Assembly: GCA_965200965.1 (NCBI GenBank)
Contig: OZ241744.1
Coordinates: forward strand, 3,360,001-3,424,000
Length of the DNA: 64,000 bases
DNA from: an uncultured Candidatus Binatia bacterium
GTDB lineage: Bacteria; Desulfobacterota; Binatia; Bin18
Direction of reading: 5' to 3'
Positions 23,990 through 30,550 of this stretch are shown piece after piece; within the stretch, counting starts at the first letter, position 1, and each line of letters begins with the position of its first letter. The translations under genes were made by a program, and so were the position numbers. The notes under the pieces were generated by a model, which made no database searches, had not been told where the DNA came from, and saw nothing but the letters and a program-made list of their open reading frames with translations.

Positions 23990-25243
23990 ATGGCTTGGCC
24001 TGTGCGCTACAAACTCGTCGGTCTGCTGGCCACCGGCAGCATGATTAACTATGCCGACCGGGTGAACATCTCGGTGGCCGCGCCGGTGATGATGGCCGCC
24101 CTCGGCTGGGATGAGGCCCAGTTCGGGCTGATCTTTTCGGCCTTTCTGCTCGGCTACACCCTGCTCCAGATTCCCGGCGGGATTATCGCCGACCGCTGGA
24201 ATACGGTCTGGGTGGTGGCGATTGCGTGCTTTGGCTTCTCGCTGTTTACCGCCCTGACGCCGTTTGGAGCGCTGGCGTTTGGCCTGATGCTGGTCCTGCG
24301 GTTCAGTGTCGGCCTGCTGGAATCGGTCAGCTTTCCGGCCTATGCGGCGCTGAACGCGCGCTGGATTCCGCGCTATGAGTATGGCCGCGCCCAGAACATC
24401 AGCCTGTCGGGTTCGCACATCGGTCAAGCCCTGGCCTATCCGGTGACGACCTGGATTATTGCCACCTTTGCCTGGCCGGCGGTGTTTTATTTTAACGGCC
24501 TGCTGGGCGGGCTGTGGCTGATCGTGTGGCTGGCTTCGGTCACGAACACGCCGGCCGAGCATCCTCGCATTAGCCAGCAGGAGTTGCGGGAAATTGAAGA
24601 CAACCTGGCTCCGCGGCCTCAGACGACGGTCTCCCCGCTGCGTCTGCTCAGAAACCGTCACGTTCTGCTGCTCTCTCTGGCTTATATGTACATGGTGTAC
24701 GGGCTGTGGATGGTGATTCTGTGGTTGCCGACCTATCTGGTCCAGGCCCGTGGCTTTTCGCTGGAGGCAATGGGGGTGCTGGGCATCATTCCGACGGTGG
24801 CGGGTGCCTTGGGCCTCATCTCGGGCGGGACAATTTCGGACGTGTTGCTGCGGCGTGGCTGGAGTCCGCGGGTGGCCCGAGCTCAGGCCCCGGCCTTGTG
24901 CGCGTTTCTGGGCGTACCGAGTATCCTGGCCGCGGCGTTTGTGCCGTGGCCGATGGTGTCGGTCGGCTGTCTGGCCCTGTATATGTATTTTGCCAATCTG
25001 GGCAGCGGCGCGTGCTGGGCAGTGCCGGTCGAGCTGAATCCGAGGCAGATTGGAGCCATATCGGGGGTGATGAACGGGGCCGGCAATTTTGCCGGGATTT
25101 TTGGGCCGATGAGTGCCGGCTTTCTGGTGGCGGCAACGGGCAGCTGGGAGCTGCCGCTGGTGGCCATCGCCGTCATGCTGCTGGTAGCGACCCTGCTCTA
25201 CTATTTCCTGGTTGTGCCCGAGCCGATTGAGCTGTCAGGATGA
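23990..25243 (+). CDS. MFS transporter, anion:cation symporter family
   Basis: INYADRVNISVA, GYTLLQIPGG, ESVSFPA, about 12 TM segments. Confidence 0.92.
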   Translation: MAWPVRYKLVGLLATGSMINYADRVNISVAAPVMMAALGWDEAQFGLIFSAFLLGYTLLQIPGGIIADRWNTVWVVAIACFGFSLFTALTPFGALAFGLMLVLRFSVGLLESVSFPAYAALNARWIPRYEYGRAQNISLSGSHIGQALAYPVTTWIIATFAWPAVFYFNGLLGGLWLIVWLASVTNTPAEHPRISQQELREIEDNLAPRPQTTVSPLRLLRNRHVLLLSLAYMYMVYGLWMVILWLPTYLVQARGFSLEAMGVLGIIPTVAGALGLISGGTISDVLLRRGWSPRVARAQAPALCAFLGVPSILAAAFVPWPMVSVGCLALYMYFANLGSGACWAVPVELNPRQIGAISGVMNGAGNFAGIFGPMSAGFLVAATGSWELPLVAIAVMLLVATLLYYFLVVPEPIELSG

Positions 25244-25527
25244 ATGATCCTGACCCGTACAAAGACTTCACCGAGCGCCTGAAGCTGCTGAGCAGCAAGC
25301 GCCCGGATTTGATCACAACCACCCTTGGGAATATCTTCACCATGCGTCTCATTGGAAACAAGACGCATGGTGATATGGCGGAGATAGCAATTGCCGAGTT
25401 TATCAATCAATACATGTACGACTTCCGCTCAATTCACGTCGGGAAAGACCTGTACCGCGCCAAGTCAAAATCGATTGTTTTCTCACGCCCTTGTAGCCTC
25501 GGAGGCTGGCCACACAGCGGCGCTTGA
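25240..25527 (+). pseudogene. Truncated putative type II restriction endonuclease (5' part only)
   Basis: Lower-GC ORF with THGDMAEIAIAEF helix directly upstream of a DNA methyltransferase; sequence character changes after LYRAKSK; too short for a full REase. Confidence 0.5.
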
Positions 25528-25577: not shown

Positions 25578-26711
25578 ATGGCACACACACTTCCGCTCTT
25601 TGACGACCTCGTCCTTGACGCCCCATCTACGGAGGGGATCAAGTACGCTGGGTCTAAGCTGAAGCTCCTTCCGCACCTGCTGCAACTGGTCAAGAAAGTC
25701 GGAGCGGAGACGGTTCTGGACGGGTTTTCGGGAACAAGCAGGGTATCGCAGGCGCTTGCCAAATGTGGCTATCGAGTCGTGTGTAATGACATTGCTGTCT
25801 GGTCTGAAGTTTTTGGCACCTGTTATCTGCTTAACACCAAAGAACCGGAGGCGTATCAGCCGCTCATTGATCATCTCAACGCCGTCCCGCCGGTTGACGG
25901 GTGGTTCACCGAACACTATGGCGGGAACGCTAACGGAGGCTGTGCGATACAGCGCGATGGCCGTAAGACCCCTTGGCAGCTACACAATACCCGCAAACTG
26001 GACGCGATCCGGCAGGAAATTGAAGCGCTCGCTCTTGACTCTGTAGATAAAGCGGTGGCCCTGAGCAGCCTGATTTTGGCGCTTGATCGCGTAGATAGTA
26101 CCCTGGGACACTTTGTCTCGTATCTCAAAGACTGGTCTCCTCGCTCCTATAAGAAGCTGATACTCCAGGTCCCGAATGTCTTTGCGTCGGCGCACGAACA
26201 CCGGGTGTACCGGAGCGACATATTTGACCTGCTCCCTGGCGTTCCTGTCGATCTGGCCTATTTCGATCCTCCGTATGGATCAAACAATGAGAAAATGCCG
26301 CCGTCACGGGTCCGCTACGCCTCCTACTACCATATTTGGACAAGCGTCTGTCTCTTCGATAAGCCAGACCTCTTTGGTAAGGCTAATCGTCGCACGGATA
26401 CGTCGGATACAGTAGCGGCATCGGTGTTTGAGGAGTACCGACGAAACGCCGCAGGGCGTTTCATTGCCGTCGAGGCAATTGAGAGACTTCTCAAGGCGAC
26501 CCGGACACGCTGGATTATCCTGTCGTACAGCTCTGGGGGGCGGGCGACAGCTGAAGAACTGAACGAAGTTCTGCGCCGTAATGGGCTCCTCCGAGAGGTT
26601 GTTGAGATCGGCTACAGGAAGAACGTTATGTCTGGCATGAAGTGGACCAATGAATGGTTAAGAGATGCGGAGCAAGCAAATCGAGAGTTCTTGTTCCTGC
26701 TCGAAAAGTGA
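25578..26711 (+). CDS. N6-adenine DNA methyltransferase, D12/alpha class
   Basis: IKYAGSKLKL, motif I DGFSGT, motif IV YFDPPY, ILSYSS. Confidence 0.92.
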   Translation: MAHTLPLFDDLVLDAPSTEGIKYAGSKLKLLPHLLQLVKKVGAETVLDGFSGTSRVSQALAKCGYRVVCNDIAVWSEVFGTCYLLNTKEPEAYQPLIDHLNAVPPVDGWFTEHYGGNANGGCAIQRDGRKTPWQLHNTRKLDAIRQEIEALALDSVDKAVALSSLILALDRVDSTLGHFVSYLKDWSPRSYKKLILQVPNVFASAHEHRVYRSDIFDLLPGVPVDLAYFDPPYGSNNEKMPPSRVRYASYYHIWTSVCLFDKPDLFGKANRRTDTSDTVAASVFEEYRRNAAGRFIAVEAIERLLKATRTRWIILSYSSGGRATAEELNEVLRRNGLLREVVEIGYRKNVMSGMKWTNEWLRDAEQANREFLFLLEK

Positions 26712-26729: not shown

Positions 26730-26903
26730 TTACGCCTCTTTCCACACCGCCGAGACCAGCTCGGTGTCAAGATAGGCCGTGCCTTCGGTGACTTTGCCGC
26801 TGGCGAGCGCATGACCCGGCAATAGCTGTTGTGGTAGGATTTGCCGGAGTTCAATCTGTCCGCCGGCGACCCCAATGGAACTCTCAGACCACGTTTGCGC
26901 CAC
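26730..26903 (-). pseudogene. Chimeric remnant ORF (N-terminus shared with 30550 ORF; SnoaL/NTF2-like C-terminal fragment)
   Basis: GTG-AQTWSESSIGVAGGQ start with GGGAG RBS; ends GKVTEGTAYLDTELVSAVWKEA. Confidence 0.4.
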
Positions 26904-27010: not shown

Positions 27011-27979
27011 TCACATCAAGCAGAGCGCGATAGCGCTGCCGATAGCCAGCCCAATAATCACTGAAAAGACCAACGCTTTTACAATTGTCCGCCATCTCCA
27101 GTTGAAAAAAGTAAAAACAGACGGCCGCCATCTCCAGTTGAAAAAAGTGAAAACAGAGAGAATCAGGGCGAACAGAGAAAAAACAAGAGAAAAAACAGGT
27201 GTGAAAGCGTCCAATGTTCGGATGTCAGGCAGGCTAGTTTTGATGCCTGCCATATAGGGGAGCCCGATAGCTGCCATGAGGATCGCTAGTAGGCCGACTA
27301 CCAGCGAGGTAAACAGGTTAATTTTTTGGTATACTTCGTCCAGCTTGTCTTTTGTTTCACCAGGCCCGCTGCGGAAATCGTCAATTCCGAAGTCTTCTAT
27401 GACGAGACGTTTGGGGGGCCGTCGGTATCGCTCCCATTCCTCATCTCCCTTGCTGATATCAAAGTAAGTAGTCTTGACGAAATCGAGAACGGCGATAGCC
27501 TCGCCCTTTTCTATTGATACTTTTTTATTCGACAGATTGTAAATTGGACAAAACAGATGCCCTACATAGCCCGGGTCAACCTGCGGTCCGCCGACCCAAA
27601 CCAATCCTTTGTATGCCAAGGCAACTCGAATGTTCCAACGCCCGATGAGGAACCTGGGCAGATTGAGTGTCTCGGCAGTTTGTATGACCGCTACCTCAAA
27701 CGCGGGGATACTGAGCGAATTGTTTGGCCAGCAGTCGCTGAGATGATAAGGCTTACCACCTACCACTACCTCATCGCCCACAGTCAATTTATAGGAAGCG
27801 GGCTTAAGATTCTTCTTATTGAAGGGGTCAATTAGCTGACCCTGCCTTACATAGAACTCTATCTCGTCGCTGAGGAGGACACCAGTCTTCTCCGGGTGGG
27901 AGTCCTTTTCCAAGGGCTTGATCTCGGCTAGCCGATCGCATTCCTCCTGTTGCCTCTTTGTACTCATTGCCTTAACCAC
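27011..27979 (-). CDS. dCTP deaminase/dUTPase-fold domain fused to C-terminal transmembrane helices
   Basis: GVLLSDEI, LKPASYKLTVG, ETLNLP, VDPGYVGHL, IYNLS; three hydrophobic segments after a short coiled linker. Confidence 0.85.
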   Translation of the reverse strand: MVKAMSTKRQQEECDRLAEIKPLEKDSHPEKTGVLLSDEIEFYVRQGQLIDPFNKKNLKPASYKLTVGDEVVVGGKPYHLSDCWPNNSLSIPAFEVAVIQTAETLNLPRFLIGRWNIRVALAYKGLVWVGGPQVDPGYVGHLFCPIYNLSNKKVSIEKGEAIAVLDFVKTTYFDISKGDEEWERYRRPPKRLVIEDFGIDDFRSGPGETKDKLDEVYQKINLFTSLVVGLLAILMAAIGLPYMAGIKTSLPDIRTLDAFTPVFSLVFSLFALILSVFTFFNWRWRPSVFTFFNWRWRTIVKALVFSVIIGLAIGSAIALCLM

Positions 27980-29039
27980 GCCTGCGATGGCTTGAATTGC
28001 TCTGAGGGATGTTGCGCGAAGCTATGTCGCTATGGCCCGGCCCATAGCCAAGGAAATGGACCGGCATCCCGATCTGTTCTTCAACCTTCCGGAGAAACCG
28101 CTCTACGGTAAATGAATGCCGGCCGTTTTTCCCGAAAGCTGGATCGAGATAGTCGAGATGATTGAGGACAATCTCCGTTGGAGCGTTCACCTCTATAGCC
28201 GATCGTACAATATCGGGATCGAACTTTGCGACCCGGCGGACCTTTCCTGTAACGGTTGTATACTCTCGAACGCATTGACCGCCCCGGCCTTTCGTAATTT
28301 CGTCCCATGTCGTTTCGTTCGGGAGAGGGCCGGAAGACCCGGCAACACGAATAGGAAATGCGCGAATGACGAGGACGATCTGATCCACATCCAGAGGACT
28401 CAGGCCCGCCTCGGAGACGAAAGCCGCCGCGCTGGTATCGCGGCTGGTCGTGTACGGATAGTCTGGGGCATGGAGCACCGACAAGCCAAAGCCTTGGGTT
28501 CCCTCTATGACAATACGGGCACCTTTTTTGAGGGCCTCACGCATGAGTGCTGTCGTGTCGCCGAGAAACGCCGTCAGTCGCCGGTCGTCCGCTGCCAAAA
28601 TACTTCGTCCCGAGCGACGGGCGCGTTCTATGACCGCCGCACCTGTCCCGCTTCCCGTCGAACCTATCCGGCTCTGCAAGTCCCAGTCATGTTCTGTCTG
28701 CTTGTGGGCCTCGGAAATGACCACGGCACGCGGACTAATTCTCAGCCGACTCGCTTCCAGAGGGACATCTTCACGGACACGCTCAATTTCTTTGAGCAGG
28801 CGCGGGACGTCAATGTACGAGCCTGGACCGATGATAAGAGTTGGGTCCGGCAACAGACAGGCCGTTGGGAGGTGACGAAACACATGCCGCTTGTTTCTCT
28901 CATCTACGACGGTATGTCCGGAATTGGAGCCGCCAACCCGCACAACGACGGAGGCCTTTTGGGTTTTGGTAAGCCAGTGCGCGACTTTTCCCTTGCCCTC
29001 GGAGCCGAACTGCCCACCCACAACCACTGAAACCGGCAT
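27972..29039 (-). CDS. Adenylosuccinate synthetase homolog, short PurZ/PurZ0-like form
   Basis: GGQFGSEGKGK, GGSNSGHT, IGSTGSGTG, IEGTQG, YPYTTSRD, TTVTGKVRRV, NHLDY; 355 aa. Confidence 0.9.
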   Translation of the reverse strand: MPVSVVVGGQFGSEGKGKVAHWLTKTQKASVVVRVGGSNSGHTVVDERNKRHVFRHLPTACLLPDPTLIIGPGSYIDVPRLLKEIERVREDVPLEASRLRISPRAVVISEAHKQTEHDWDLQSRIGSTGSGTGAAVIERARRSGRSILAADDRRLTAFLGDTTALMREALKKGARIVIEGTQGFGLSVLHAPDYPYTTSRDTSAAAFVSEAGLSPLDVDQIVLVIRAFPIRVAGSSGPLPNETTWDEITKGRGGQCVREYTTVTGKVRRVAKFDPDIVRSAIEVNAPTEIVLNHLDYLDPAFGKNGRHSFTVERFLRKVEEQIGMPVHFLGYGPGHSDIASRNIPQSNSSHRRRG

Positions 29040-29056: not shown

Positions 29057-30550
29057 TTACAAATCCGTTCGGAGAGATAGCGTCCCGGAATTGGCTTGCC
29101 CCGTGGTTGAGGAGACGCCATTTCCGAGTCTGGGGATAATCAGGGGTTCCTCGTCCGCTGTTCCCAGGGCTTCGGACAGGCCAGCCAGATAAAACGTGCC
29201 CACAAGGGCCGATGTGATGGCATCGAGTTCGTCATGCGTCACGTTGTGTGTCTCGTAATCACCCCGTATGCCAAATTCCCACAAGCCCGCCTTCAGCCAC
29301 TCCGGGCCGGCACCCTTGCGGGGGATACGCATGATATCTTGCGCCGCGCCGGGATAGCTCTCAATCACCTGAACATCATGCTCACGGAGTGTGCGGGCGA
29401 GTCGGATCCCTCTTGCCGTGAGTTTCTGCATGCTCGGGATAAGACAGGGATAGACATTGATACCGCGTCGCCTGAGCTCGCGTTCGCATTCGCGCGTGAT
29501 TCCAAATTCCGTCCGACCGGGGTCGTCATCCCCAACGGCAGCACGGCCAGCCGGAAGACATAAAGGGGAGTCGATAGAAACGAGACGTGGACAGGCCCGT
29601 ATCGTTTTTTCGATCAATGCGTCGTCCGAGAACACTGGCGCTACCTGCGCTTGCGATCCATCCAGAAGGCACCAACCGCTGGCCCGTTCCTCGGAGCCGG
29701 TAAGATCGATTCCAACGATTCGAAGTCTTGAGAGAGGACCGGGGCTGAACAGATCAGAGAACCGGAAGCGTCCCTGCATCAACTCACCAGATGGCATGGG
29801 AAGGCTCGGCAGCGTCTGCCAGTCCTGCGGTGCCGACCAGTCTCGAAAACATACATTCTTGGAAAACAACTCCAGTTGCGTGCCAAGTCGAGAGACCACC
29901 TCGTCAAATATCGCTCCCATGGCTGCGATGTCGGCCCGGTTGTAGCGAATGAGCTTTTGGAGGGCGTCTTGATCGCCACGAACATACCGATGCCAAAGCA
30001 CGACGGCCGCAGCGCCGTCCAGGCTGGTCAAATCGTTTCGAAAGCCGATACCCAACGCTTTTTCGATGGCCTTTTGCCCACCTGTCAAACCGACGCGGCG
30101 GCAAAGATACATCAGGTCAATATGCGGCTCGGGCAGAACGATCTCGGGAAATTCCCGTGTAATGAACTTGGCGTCGAAGCGGATCCCGTTGAAGGTAACC
30201 AGAGCCTTTGCGCGCGCGGCGTCCTCTTGTAACTGTCTCGGAGCTTGCCCCTTGATGATCGTTTTCGCATGACCTCCAAAAGACCATCCGATGACGGTAA
30301 TCTCGTCATAATAATGGCTGAGGCCGGTCGTCTCAATATCGAGAAAAAGAATGTCCTCGGGAGAATCAACACAGGTAGCGAACTGGCGTCGCAATTTTTG
30401 CCGGATGGTACGAGGCGTAACTGAGCGCTCTTTCCTGCCTGTTCTCCTTGGTTCCTTTGCCTGATCGGGCGGATTGCCGACGCCGGGAAGGCTGAGGGCG
30501 GCCTGTCCGCCGGTACCCTCAATGGAACTCTCAGGCCACGTTTGCGCCAC
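29057..30550 (-). CDS. RNase H-like (YprB/RNase_H_2) exonuclease fused to DUF429 predicted nuclease
   Basis: LFLDIETTGL, VTFNGIRFD, HIDL, YNRAD (DEDDy-like), then IVGIDLTG, VSIDSPL, RECEREL, VIESYP, DELDAI. Confidence 0.88.
   Translation of the reverse strand: MAQTWPESSIEGTGGQAALSLPGVGNPPDQAKEPRRTGRKERSVTPRTIRQKLRRQFATCVDSPEDILFLDIETTGLSHYYDEITVIGWSFGGHAKTIIKGQAPRQLQEDAARAKALVTFNGIRFDAKFITREFPEIVLPEPHIDLMYLCRRVGLTGGQKAIEKALGIGFRNDLTSLDGAAAVVLWHRYVRGDQDALQKLIRYNRADIAAMGAIFDEVVSRLGTQLELFSKNVCFRDWSAPQDWQTLPSLPMPSGELMQGRFRFSDLFSPGPLSRLRIVGIDLTGSEERASGWCLLDGSQAQVAPVFSDDALIEKTIRACPRLVSIDSPLCLPAGRAAVGDDDPGRTEFGITRECERELRRRGINVYPCLIPSMQKLTARGIRLARTLREHDVQVIESYPGAAQDIMRIPRKGAGPEWLKAGLWEFGIRGDYETHNVTHDELDAITSALVGTFYLAGLSEALGTADEEPLIIPRLGNGVSSTTGQANSGTLSLRTDL

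Follow-up and report, generated by a model that had tools for sequence, protein, structure and literature searches.

The 64,000-nucleotide (nt) stretch analysed here (the window; positions 3,360,001–3,424,000 of contig OZ241744.1 from an uncultured Candidatus Binatia bacterium) carries a three-gene cassette of 3.5 kb. Its middle gene encodes a paralogue of adenylosuccinate synthetase (PurA) that resembles PurZ, the phage enzyme. A nuclease gene lies upstream, and downstream a gene for a protein with a dCTP-deaminase (Dcd) fold and membrane helices, here called the Dcd-membrane protein, overlaps the PurZ-like stop codon:

29057..30550, minus strand: nuclease gene, 497 amino acids (aa), with an RNase_H_2 domain (DEDD-type exonuclease; PF13482, E = 1e-31) and a DUF429-like RNase-H-fold domain.
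27972..29039, minus strand: PurZ-like adenylosuccinate-synthetase paralogue (serine-type), 355 aa, assigned by PF00709, residues and tree.
27011..27979, minus strand: Dcd-membrane protein, 322 aa, a putative receptor-effector with a dCTP-deaminase/dUTPase fold and membrane helices.

The PurZ-like open reading frame (ORF) is intact and free of stops, and its product matches PF00709 with E = 3e-59. Alignment with the genome's own PurA and phage references showed that the GDEGKG motif of canonical PurA reads GSEGKG (Ser13, codon 29003–29001), that the glycine of the EFG motif (Gly298 of canonical PurA) is Thr261, and that TKxD is replaced by Asn293-His294-Leu295-Asp296, which keeps the GTP-specifying Asp333 as Asp296. 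These are the substitutions that a preliminary description of the gene had proposed. Its comparison of the short form with archaeal PurA and PurZ also agrees with the best solved-structure match, archaeal PurA 2d7u (E = 4e-57; next 7vf6 and 6fm1). The change it reported at Arg303 is real (Lys266) and has no value as a signature, because Arg is retained at this position in 32 of 85 cellular relatives. An alignment to 31 canonical PurAs and eight phage references shows Phe11, Ser13 and Thr261 together with a P-I-R-V motif carrying the PurZ/PurZ0 loop insertion; all 31 canonical PurAs have Trp11, Asp13, Gly261 and Arg266. Catalytic His42, Thr128, Arg142, Gln182, Thr198 and Arg268 are retained, and the ratio of non-synonymous to synonymous substitution rates (dN/dS) is 0.38 and 0.24 against two relatives. 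Scores fall under the cut-offs for canonical PurA (TIGR00184, 224 versus 396), archaeal PurA (PRK04293, 282 versus 368) and PurZ (NCBIfam NF038379, 261.8 versus 300). A public-run contig covers 25000–31000 without any difference and may itself be the source; contigs from three other studies cover the PurZ-like gene. Scanning for promoters and terminators returned sites no more numerous than in shuffled sequence.

In the wide sense taken from section 24 of PMC12884076 and from the available part of 10.1101/2025.10.22.683976, a PurZ has Ser (or Gly) at position 13, an aromatic residue at 11 and Thr at 261, all of which are found here. The traits of PurZ proper are lacking: the protein has N-H-L-D instead of N-F-x-N/Q and Glu14 instead of Thr14, and its NF038379 score is below the cut-off. 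PurZ (cyanophage S-2L, Vibrio phage phiVC8/VP2; NF038379; 7odx, 6fm1) shares the short form, Ser13, the aromatic residue 11, Thr261, the P-I-R-V motif with loop insertion, Asn293, Tyr297 and a C-terminal GxGP (residue roles from sections 7 and 8 of PMC8342488). It differs in having Thr14, Phe294 and Asn/Gln296 in place of Glu14, His294 and Asp296, whereas the PurZ-like protein stands in a separate clade and is encoded in a chromosomal operon without datZ or mazZ. PurZ0 (Gordonia phage Sapo, Arthrobacter phage Wayne; 7vf6) shares the GSE start motif, Thr261 and an acidic residue 296, so the PurZ0 resemblance noted earlier stands; membership does not, as PurZ0 forms a 100/100 clade of its own that excludes the protein, N293-H294 is absent from PurZ0 and no dutZ/dmtZ is found here. 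Use of GTP by PurZ0 was reportedly described by Tong et al. in 2023. Canonical and archaeal short PurAs (TIGR00184, PRK04293) share the fold and most catalytic residues, but their Asp13, Trp11 and Gly298 are replaced in the PurZ-like protein, an extra copy that scores below both cut-offs. According to the available text of 10.1101/2025.10.22.683976, S14, F12 and T262 of phiVC8 PurZ accommodate the 2-amino group. From its PurZ residues, dGMP is the predicted acceptor of the PurZ-like protein and, with D296 at the nucleotide site, GTP rather than ATP is the predicted donor. Judged by these residues, the enzyme is PurZ-like in its working, yet it belongs neither to PurZ proper nor to PurZ0.

The same residues characterize a large group of relatives. 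Among the 85 cellular relatives, 78 have Ser and 7 have Gly at position 13, so that Asp13 is lost in all of them; at position 261, 81 carry Thr and 4 carry Ser; and N293, H294 and D296 (the N-H-x-D motif) are invariant. On these alignments, Ser13, Thr261 and NHxD are family traits and not drift. The seven Gly13 relatives (loci L025, L028, L029, L031, L032, L037 and L075) come mostly from Desulfuromonadales and related lineages. A protein search yielded 4,969 matches at E <= 1e-40 among 8,000 scored candidates, a number in which other PurA types may be counted; the best 120 matches are 51–97% identical to the PurZ-like protein. From a GTDB genome scan, the best 80 of at least 593 confirmed matches (on at least 599 stretches) were analysed as loci, and tree labels of PurZ-like relatives span 14 phyla.

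In a tree of 51 rows, the cellular branch forms its own 100/100 clade. A serine group (42 rows, 100/99) unites this clade with PurZ (100/100), PurZ0 (100/100) and a kinase-fused cellular form (100/100), so that the PurZ-like protein groups with serine-type PurZ/PurZ0 and outside canonical PurA, in keeping with the preliminary description. In this tree, which has no archaeal short PurA among its rows, an approximately unbiased (AU) test left a position of the cellular clade next to canonical PurA unrejected (p = 0.21). By these sequence comparisons, the PurZ-like protein belongs to a distinct, mainly cellular branch that is neither PurZ nor PurZ0 proper. Cellular PurZ homologues are already known in principle: PMC12884076 counts four archaeal sequences of serine/glycine type among the members of the PurZ group, and its available part gives them no operon or role. 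Seven viral contigs (L084–L089 and L091) carry genes nested within the cellular branch and scattered inside it. They are lone cellular-type copies with NHxD intact and without the operon partners, adjoining structural or replication genes on contigs that in some cases measure 100–310 kb. Such lone phage copies could serve counter-defence or an independent Z-type modification (Z, 2-aminoadenine).

The PurZ-like gene is not the sole purA of its genome. A canonical purA lies at C1:1612781-1614037, as the preliminary description had left room for, and purB is also present; canonical purA was over the cut-off in 44 of 50 host genomes (representing 50 of the 80 loci, from a collection that includes incomplete assemblies). 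Neither datZ and mazZ, whose absence from the neighbourhood had been pointed out before, nor dutZ/dmtZ lies beside the PurZ-like gene, and no phage genes were found near it. A genome-wide tblastn search with five phage Z-cluster accessory proteins (DpoZ not among the queries) matched nothing beyond the host dUTPase and an HD hydrolase encoded about 320 kb away. The HD hydrolase, which from its motif we take to be YfbR, was set aside as a Z-cluster candidate, being a probable housekeeping protein. No dCTP deaminase over the TIGR02274 cut-off was found in the genome. Against this background it is very improbable, and already largely refuted, that the gene is left over from a Z-genome prophage or encodes a second, redundant PurA. 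The nearest characterized enzymes are indeed phage PurZ and PurZ0, and viral genes are nested in the branch, but the gene has no phage genes, datZ or mazZ nearby, sits in a cellular operon conserved across 14 phyla and belongs to a family that has lost Asp13 throughout; the viral copies, for their part, have no operon partners and occur at scattered points within the cellular branch. The earlier view, that Z-genome synthesis is unlikely and that the gene has another role, is supported by this non-phage setting and by the absence of datZ and mazZ.

The conserved partners of the PurZ-like gene are its two flanking genes, which the preliminary description overlooked, and they point to that role. 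ORF clustering over the 80 loci recovered the same gene order repeatedly, with the Dcd-membrane gene in 65 of the 68 loci that have at least 1.5 kb of downstream flank and a DUF429-like nuclease in 58 of the 73 that have at least 2.5 kb upstream. A deoxynucleoside kinase (PF01712) occurs in 35 of 80 loci and a 250-aa gene in 17, the two together in only 2; a kinase profile of our own also matches deoxynucleoside kinases, and its count of 65/80 was set aside. The predicted structure of the 250-aa product matches the N6-adenine methyltransferase RlmJ (E = 1e-4, template-modelling (TM) score about 0.47), and no Pfam, PDB-sequence or Atlas family was found for it. No adenylosuccinate lyase family was recurrent across the 80 loci. 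In a reverse search with the Dcd-membrane protein, 50 of 66 non-redundant metagenome loci held a PurZ-like gene; among the 16 others, 14 were contigs too short to judge and 2 were well flanked. At L260:1421-4020 and L227:1557-4576, the nuclease adjoins the Dcd-membrane gene with no PurZ-like gene between them, and in L227 a kinase lies between. Across 25 genomes, the distances of the PurZ-like protein show a correlation of rho 0.67 with the nuclease and of rho 0.57 with the Dcd-membrane protein, compared with rho 0.17 for host PurA, and the PurZ-like gene tree is unlike the host tree.

The Dcd-membrane protein is the most constant of these partners. Its Dcd fold spans residues about 30–175, followed in this copy by three hydrophobic helices; Foldseek matched it to 9ln0 (E = 1e-12) and 1xs1 (E = 7e-10), and it scores below the TIGR02274 cut-off (51 versus 93). 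Compared with the canonical Dcd of locus L320, the catalytic Ser/Arg/Glu have become Val119, Tyr123 and Pro145. We take the first two to correspond to the catalytic Ser111 and Arg115 of Escherichia coli dCTP deaminase; the third, Glu138 in E. coli Dcd numbering, was taken from PDB titles. Of the 50 and 43 aligned members, none keeps the Arg or the Glu and 2 keep the Ser. The family has gained an invariant Arg114 and Asn116, and Asp135 of motif III is retained in 47 of 50 members. A membrane segment was predicted in 64 of 65 full-length members versus 11 of 81 PurZ-like controls. In comparison with dCTP deaminase and trimeric dUTPase, the protein thus shares the fold, the DPG motif and a predicted trimer but differs by the lost Ser/Arg/Glu, the invariant Arg114 and Asn116 and the fused membrane helices.

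A three-copy model of the Dcd-membrane protein scored 0.80 versus 0.00 for the best control, the pass mark being one that was reached by 20 of 30 homodimers of solved structure and by 1 of 23 monomers; its runs agree in at least 82% of contacts, with a predicted local distance difference test (pLDDT) value of at least 67. In the model, residues 114–123 stand opposite residues 127–145 across subunits, the changed residues line the inter-subunit cleft, and helix 209–238 makes a bundle leading into the first membrane segment. The pass may have its source in likeness to solved Dcd trimers. A conserved non-catalytic pocket joined to membrane helices has the build of a receptor-effector. The membrane region is fast-changing (49–75% identity); in this copy it holds a 33-nt duplication (window positions 27089–27157) that encodes VFTFFNWRWR twice, and the region is replaced in contigs of sequencing runs X5 and X11. 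Six loci (L221, L222, L232, L236, L249 and L288) each carry two divergent Dcd-membrane paralogues, which suggests two sensors or a mixed trimer.

The nuclease varies more. DUF429 is matched weakly in the relatives' nucleases and is unmatched in this copy; the acidic residues of the DUF429-like domain are kept in 55–57 of 57 rows, and partly on that basis we presume this middle domain to be a RuvC-like nuclease. Full-length relatives (about 630–920 aa) have a C-terminal P-loop kinase-type domain in 11 of 11 cases tested, a domain that this copy lacks. In 3 of those 11, a PHP domain replaces RNase_H_2. PHP in place of the DEDD exonuclease was seen at L034:2405-5161, L054:5263-8010, L083:1927-4626 and L250:3010-5919; three of these, from Bacillota, add a PolX-type helix-hairpin-helix, and the fourth is a metagenome contig. 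The same reduced, kinase-less layout recurs in L004 and L170, and a nuclease directly adjoins the synthase without a kinase in several metagenome loci. This cassette copy may need host or phage kinases, or may be partly crippled.

The surroundings of the cassette bear marks of insertion and of defence genes, with four further features on its borders:

26856..26903, no strand: left copy of a 48-nt direct repeat (copies 90% identical), matching the 5′ end of the relatives' host hydrolase gene.
30503..30550, no strand: right copy of the 48-nt direct repeat, giving the nuclease ORF its start codon.
25578..26711, plus strand: type II DNA adenine methyltransferase, a separate insertion outside the conserved cassette (PF02086; PADLOC MTase_II, E = 7e-168).
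25240..25527, plus strand: remnant of a type II restriction endonuclease that has lost 506 bp internally, at 25470/25471.

The first codons of the nuclease gene derive from a host alpha/beta-hydrolase gene, and the cassette stands in place of a hydrolase-monooxygenase-SnoaL cluster in this genus. Its G+C content is 55% versus 62–64% in the flanks, and dN/dS is below 1 for all three genes (0.19–0.57), with its peak in the membrane region. A close cassette type is present in 3 of 36 genomes from the same family, in none of 24 more distant genomes and, within the genus, in 1 of 7 others; the membrane-protein profile was matched in 2 of 400 genomes of the phylum. At the same insertion site, genus relatives (L320:2863-8003 and L322:547-1396) carry a 97-aa gene and a canonical dCTP deaminase, and one carries two dynamin-like GTPases. 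The slot adjoining the cassette is occupied here by a restriction-modification pair; in relatives it contains two dynamin-like GTPases, a helix-turn-helix (HTH) gene or other genes. The endonuclease is intact (279 aa) in the closest relative; its 506-bp deletion is shared by this strain and two other runs, the endonuclease gene of L004 and run X11 is undamaged, and the methyltransferase is intact.

PADLOC matches (E <= 1e-25) occurred in the flanks of 12 of 20 loci versus 4 of 20 control windows at fixed positions of the same genomes (Fisher p = 0.022), or in 21 of 150 flank proteins versus 5 of 142 control-window proteins. This enrichment gives defence moderate support, because two pairs of the loci are related. 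It also bears on metabolic salvage or sanitation, in which a membrane-anchored unit would recycle DNA-derived nucleotides or clear odd purines (dIMP, excess dGMP). All the domains do derive from deoxynucleotide metabolism, the three genes are under purifying selection and Asp135 is retained. Such a function seems rather unlikely, however, for a cassette that is this rare and patchy, with a gene tree unlike that of its hosts, defence genes as neighbours, a dead catalytic triad fused to a fast-changing membrane region and no recurrent lyase family.

A sister form fuses a P-loop kinase to a serine-type PurA domain with a T-F-x-D motif; a DUF7002 gene (PF22531) is adjacent and a YfbR-like HD hydrolase is often nearby (L165:6431-8774, L166:5446-7739, L168:5449-7741, L169:5449-7748, L172:7431-9721 and L274:156-2459). 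Its plasmid neighbours include Sir2/DUF87, AbiEii and PD-(D/E)xK genes of defence islands. The only plausible match of DUF7002 among solved structures is DarT1, at a non-significant E of 0.15, leaving a DarT-like toxin as a lead. Locus L274 carries the fusion, DUF7002, a methyltransferase and a Dcd-membrane gene on one contig, which ties the sister and main forms into one system. Two loci of a genome of the same family (L173 and L174, genome G027) have two frameshifted kinase-fused copies, with DUF7002 split. A Rhizobium leguminosarum plasmid (L167:3401-14722) carries a short Asp13-type PurA with purB, folE, queC, a queD-like gene, queE, nitrile hydratase and IMP dehydrogenase, presumably a cluster for 7-deazapurine nucleoside biosynthesis.

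The nucleases and the sister form lend themselves to a different proposal, defence by poisoning of the nucleotide pool or marking of DNA. The cassette would make dZTP or a succinylated deoxynucleoside triphosphate (dNTP) that enters replicating DNA; DNA so marked would be the target of the nucleases or DUF7002, with the Dcd-membrane protein serving to buffer the nucleotide or clear it. The phage Z-cluster is toxic in E. coli and puts Z into DNA (available part of PMC8342488), both nuclease domains look intact, the sister form carries DUF7002 with its non-significant DarT1 likeness, and a gene with an N6-methyltransferase fold occurs in 17 of 80 loci. The most constant partner, however, is the membrane protein and not the nuclease, the DUF429-like gene being absent from 15 of 73 evaluable loci; the main form lacks a dATP-depleting enzyme, and a pool buffer needs no membrane helices. 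We therefore consider poisoning or marking unlikely.

The cassette presents the genomic features of nucleotide-signalling anti-phage systems, namely a signal enzyme linked to a putative nucleotide-binding effector in a mobile, defence-associated operon, and a role in defence or conflict is probable. Within such a role, the model that ranks best is an induced-signal anti-phage alarm, in which the product of the PurZ-like enzyme would switch on the membrane protein; we put this reading forward tentatively, as falling a little short of an even chance. In brief, the nuclease or phage-driven DNA breakdown would free dGMP, which in relatives a deoxynucleoside kinase would also supply. The PurZ-like enzyme would then couple aspartate to dGMP, probably with GTP, yielding succinyl-2-amino-dAMP, as its PurZ residues suggest. 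Host PurB and kinases would convert this product into dZTP, or kinases would phosphorylate the succinyl form directly; the kinase could be the system's own domain in most relatives and would be a host or phage enzyme for this copy. Last, the triphosphate would occupy the clefts of the dead, predicted-trimeric Dcd domain, and the membrane helices would damage the membrane and abort infection. That the invariant Arg114 reads the succinyl group is a guess.

The logic has a counterpart in Kongming (KomABC, dITP signal; available part of 10.1101/2024.12.20.629578), in which a base-modifying enzyme and kinases make a non-canonical dNTP that is sensed by a repurposed nucleotide-hydrolase fold, and which can borrow phage kinases. 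The parts differ, with a PurZ-like synthase, a Dcd-like sensor and a membrane-protein effector here and no gene in common: the domains of komA (adenosine deaminase), komB (NTP pyrophosphatase) and komC (Sir2) are absent from the three proteins and from the recurring neighbour families. Type II Metis (10.1101/2025.11.05.686725) and Panoptes (PMC12657218), in the available parts of both papers, share a nucleotide-binding membrane protein under an unusual nucleotide, but with other sensor folds and with m6dAMP (N6-methyl-dAMP) and cyclic dinucleotides, respectively, as signals; the Metis text contains none of the words dCTP, dUTPase and adenylosuccinate.

Several observations weigh against an induced alarm. 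This copy has neither the C-terminal kinase domain nor a deoxynucleoside kinase, and no PF01712 kinase was found anywhere in the genome. A single membrane helix is predicted in 56 of 65 Dcd-membrane members and could be an anchor rather than a pore, and with Asp135 retained the protein may still have some dNTP pyrophosphatase activity. Among 661 candidates (565–2,000 aa), none fuses the dead Dcd domain to a classical effector, which is weak evidence. Three genome loci (L049, L061 and L077) have no Dcd partner, and the well-flanked loci L260 and L276/L278 have the Dcd-membrane gene without a PurZ-like gene. The defence enrichment is modest and its loci are not all independent, restriction-modification genes taken alone give 8 versus 2 (p = 0.065), and in PADLOC-DB 2.0.0 (2023) the three cassette proteins match no system beyond weak single-domain matches.

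The well-flanked loci also bear on a guard of the Panoptes type, in which a constantly made modified nucleotide would hold the membrane protein off until phage depletion of dGMP or of the signal freed its toxicity. Such a guard would share the architecture of synthase and nucleotide-binding membrane effector described in the available part of PMC12657218; the supply enzymes (the nuclease and two kinases) fit constant production, and no trigger domain is evident. A Dcd-membrane gene standing without the synthase would, however, be lethal unless those copies are inactive, and constant dZTP would enter host DNA, so that we regard a guard as quite improbable.

In literature that took in few subscription journals, with the supplementary tables of defence screens outside it, no link was found between a PurA/PurZ-like enzyme and a defence operon, DUF429, DUF7002 or a Dcd-membrane protein; a term search of the available part of review PMC13434031 found no mention of PurZ, PurA or adenylosuccinate. 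The induced-alarm reading extends to a broader proposal, in which bacteria of at least 14 phyla would themselves produce dZTP or its succinyl precursor for immune signalling, with a dead Dcd domain fused to membrane helices as a new class of receptor; we hold this as possible and would place it somewhat below an even chance. If true, immunity would have an additional messenger and a novel receptor fold to set beside the few base-modified signals (dITP, m6dAMP), and Z chemistry, known as phage evasion of restriction, would gain a widespread cellular role. This would also bear on the origin of PurZ, as the phage enzyme could stem from the cellular branch, or the branch could be its captured offshoot, and the lone phage gene copies would possibly interfere with the system. 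Z-base synthesis has so far been described as a phage pathway; the fixed operon of a large bacterial branch gives cellular PurZ-type enzymes a testable job, and the cassette is found in cultured strains of Nostoc, Methylobacterium, Mesorhizobium, Microbacterium and Nitrosomonas.

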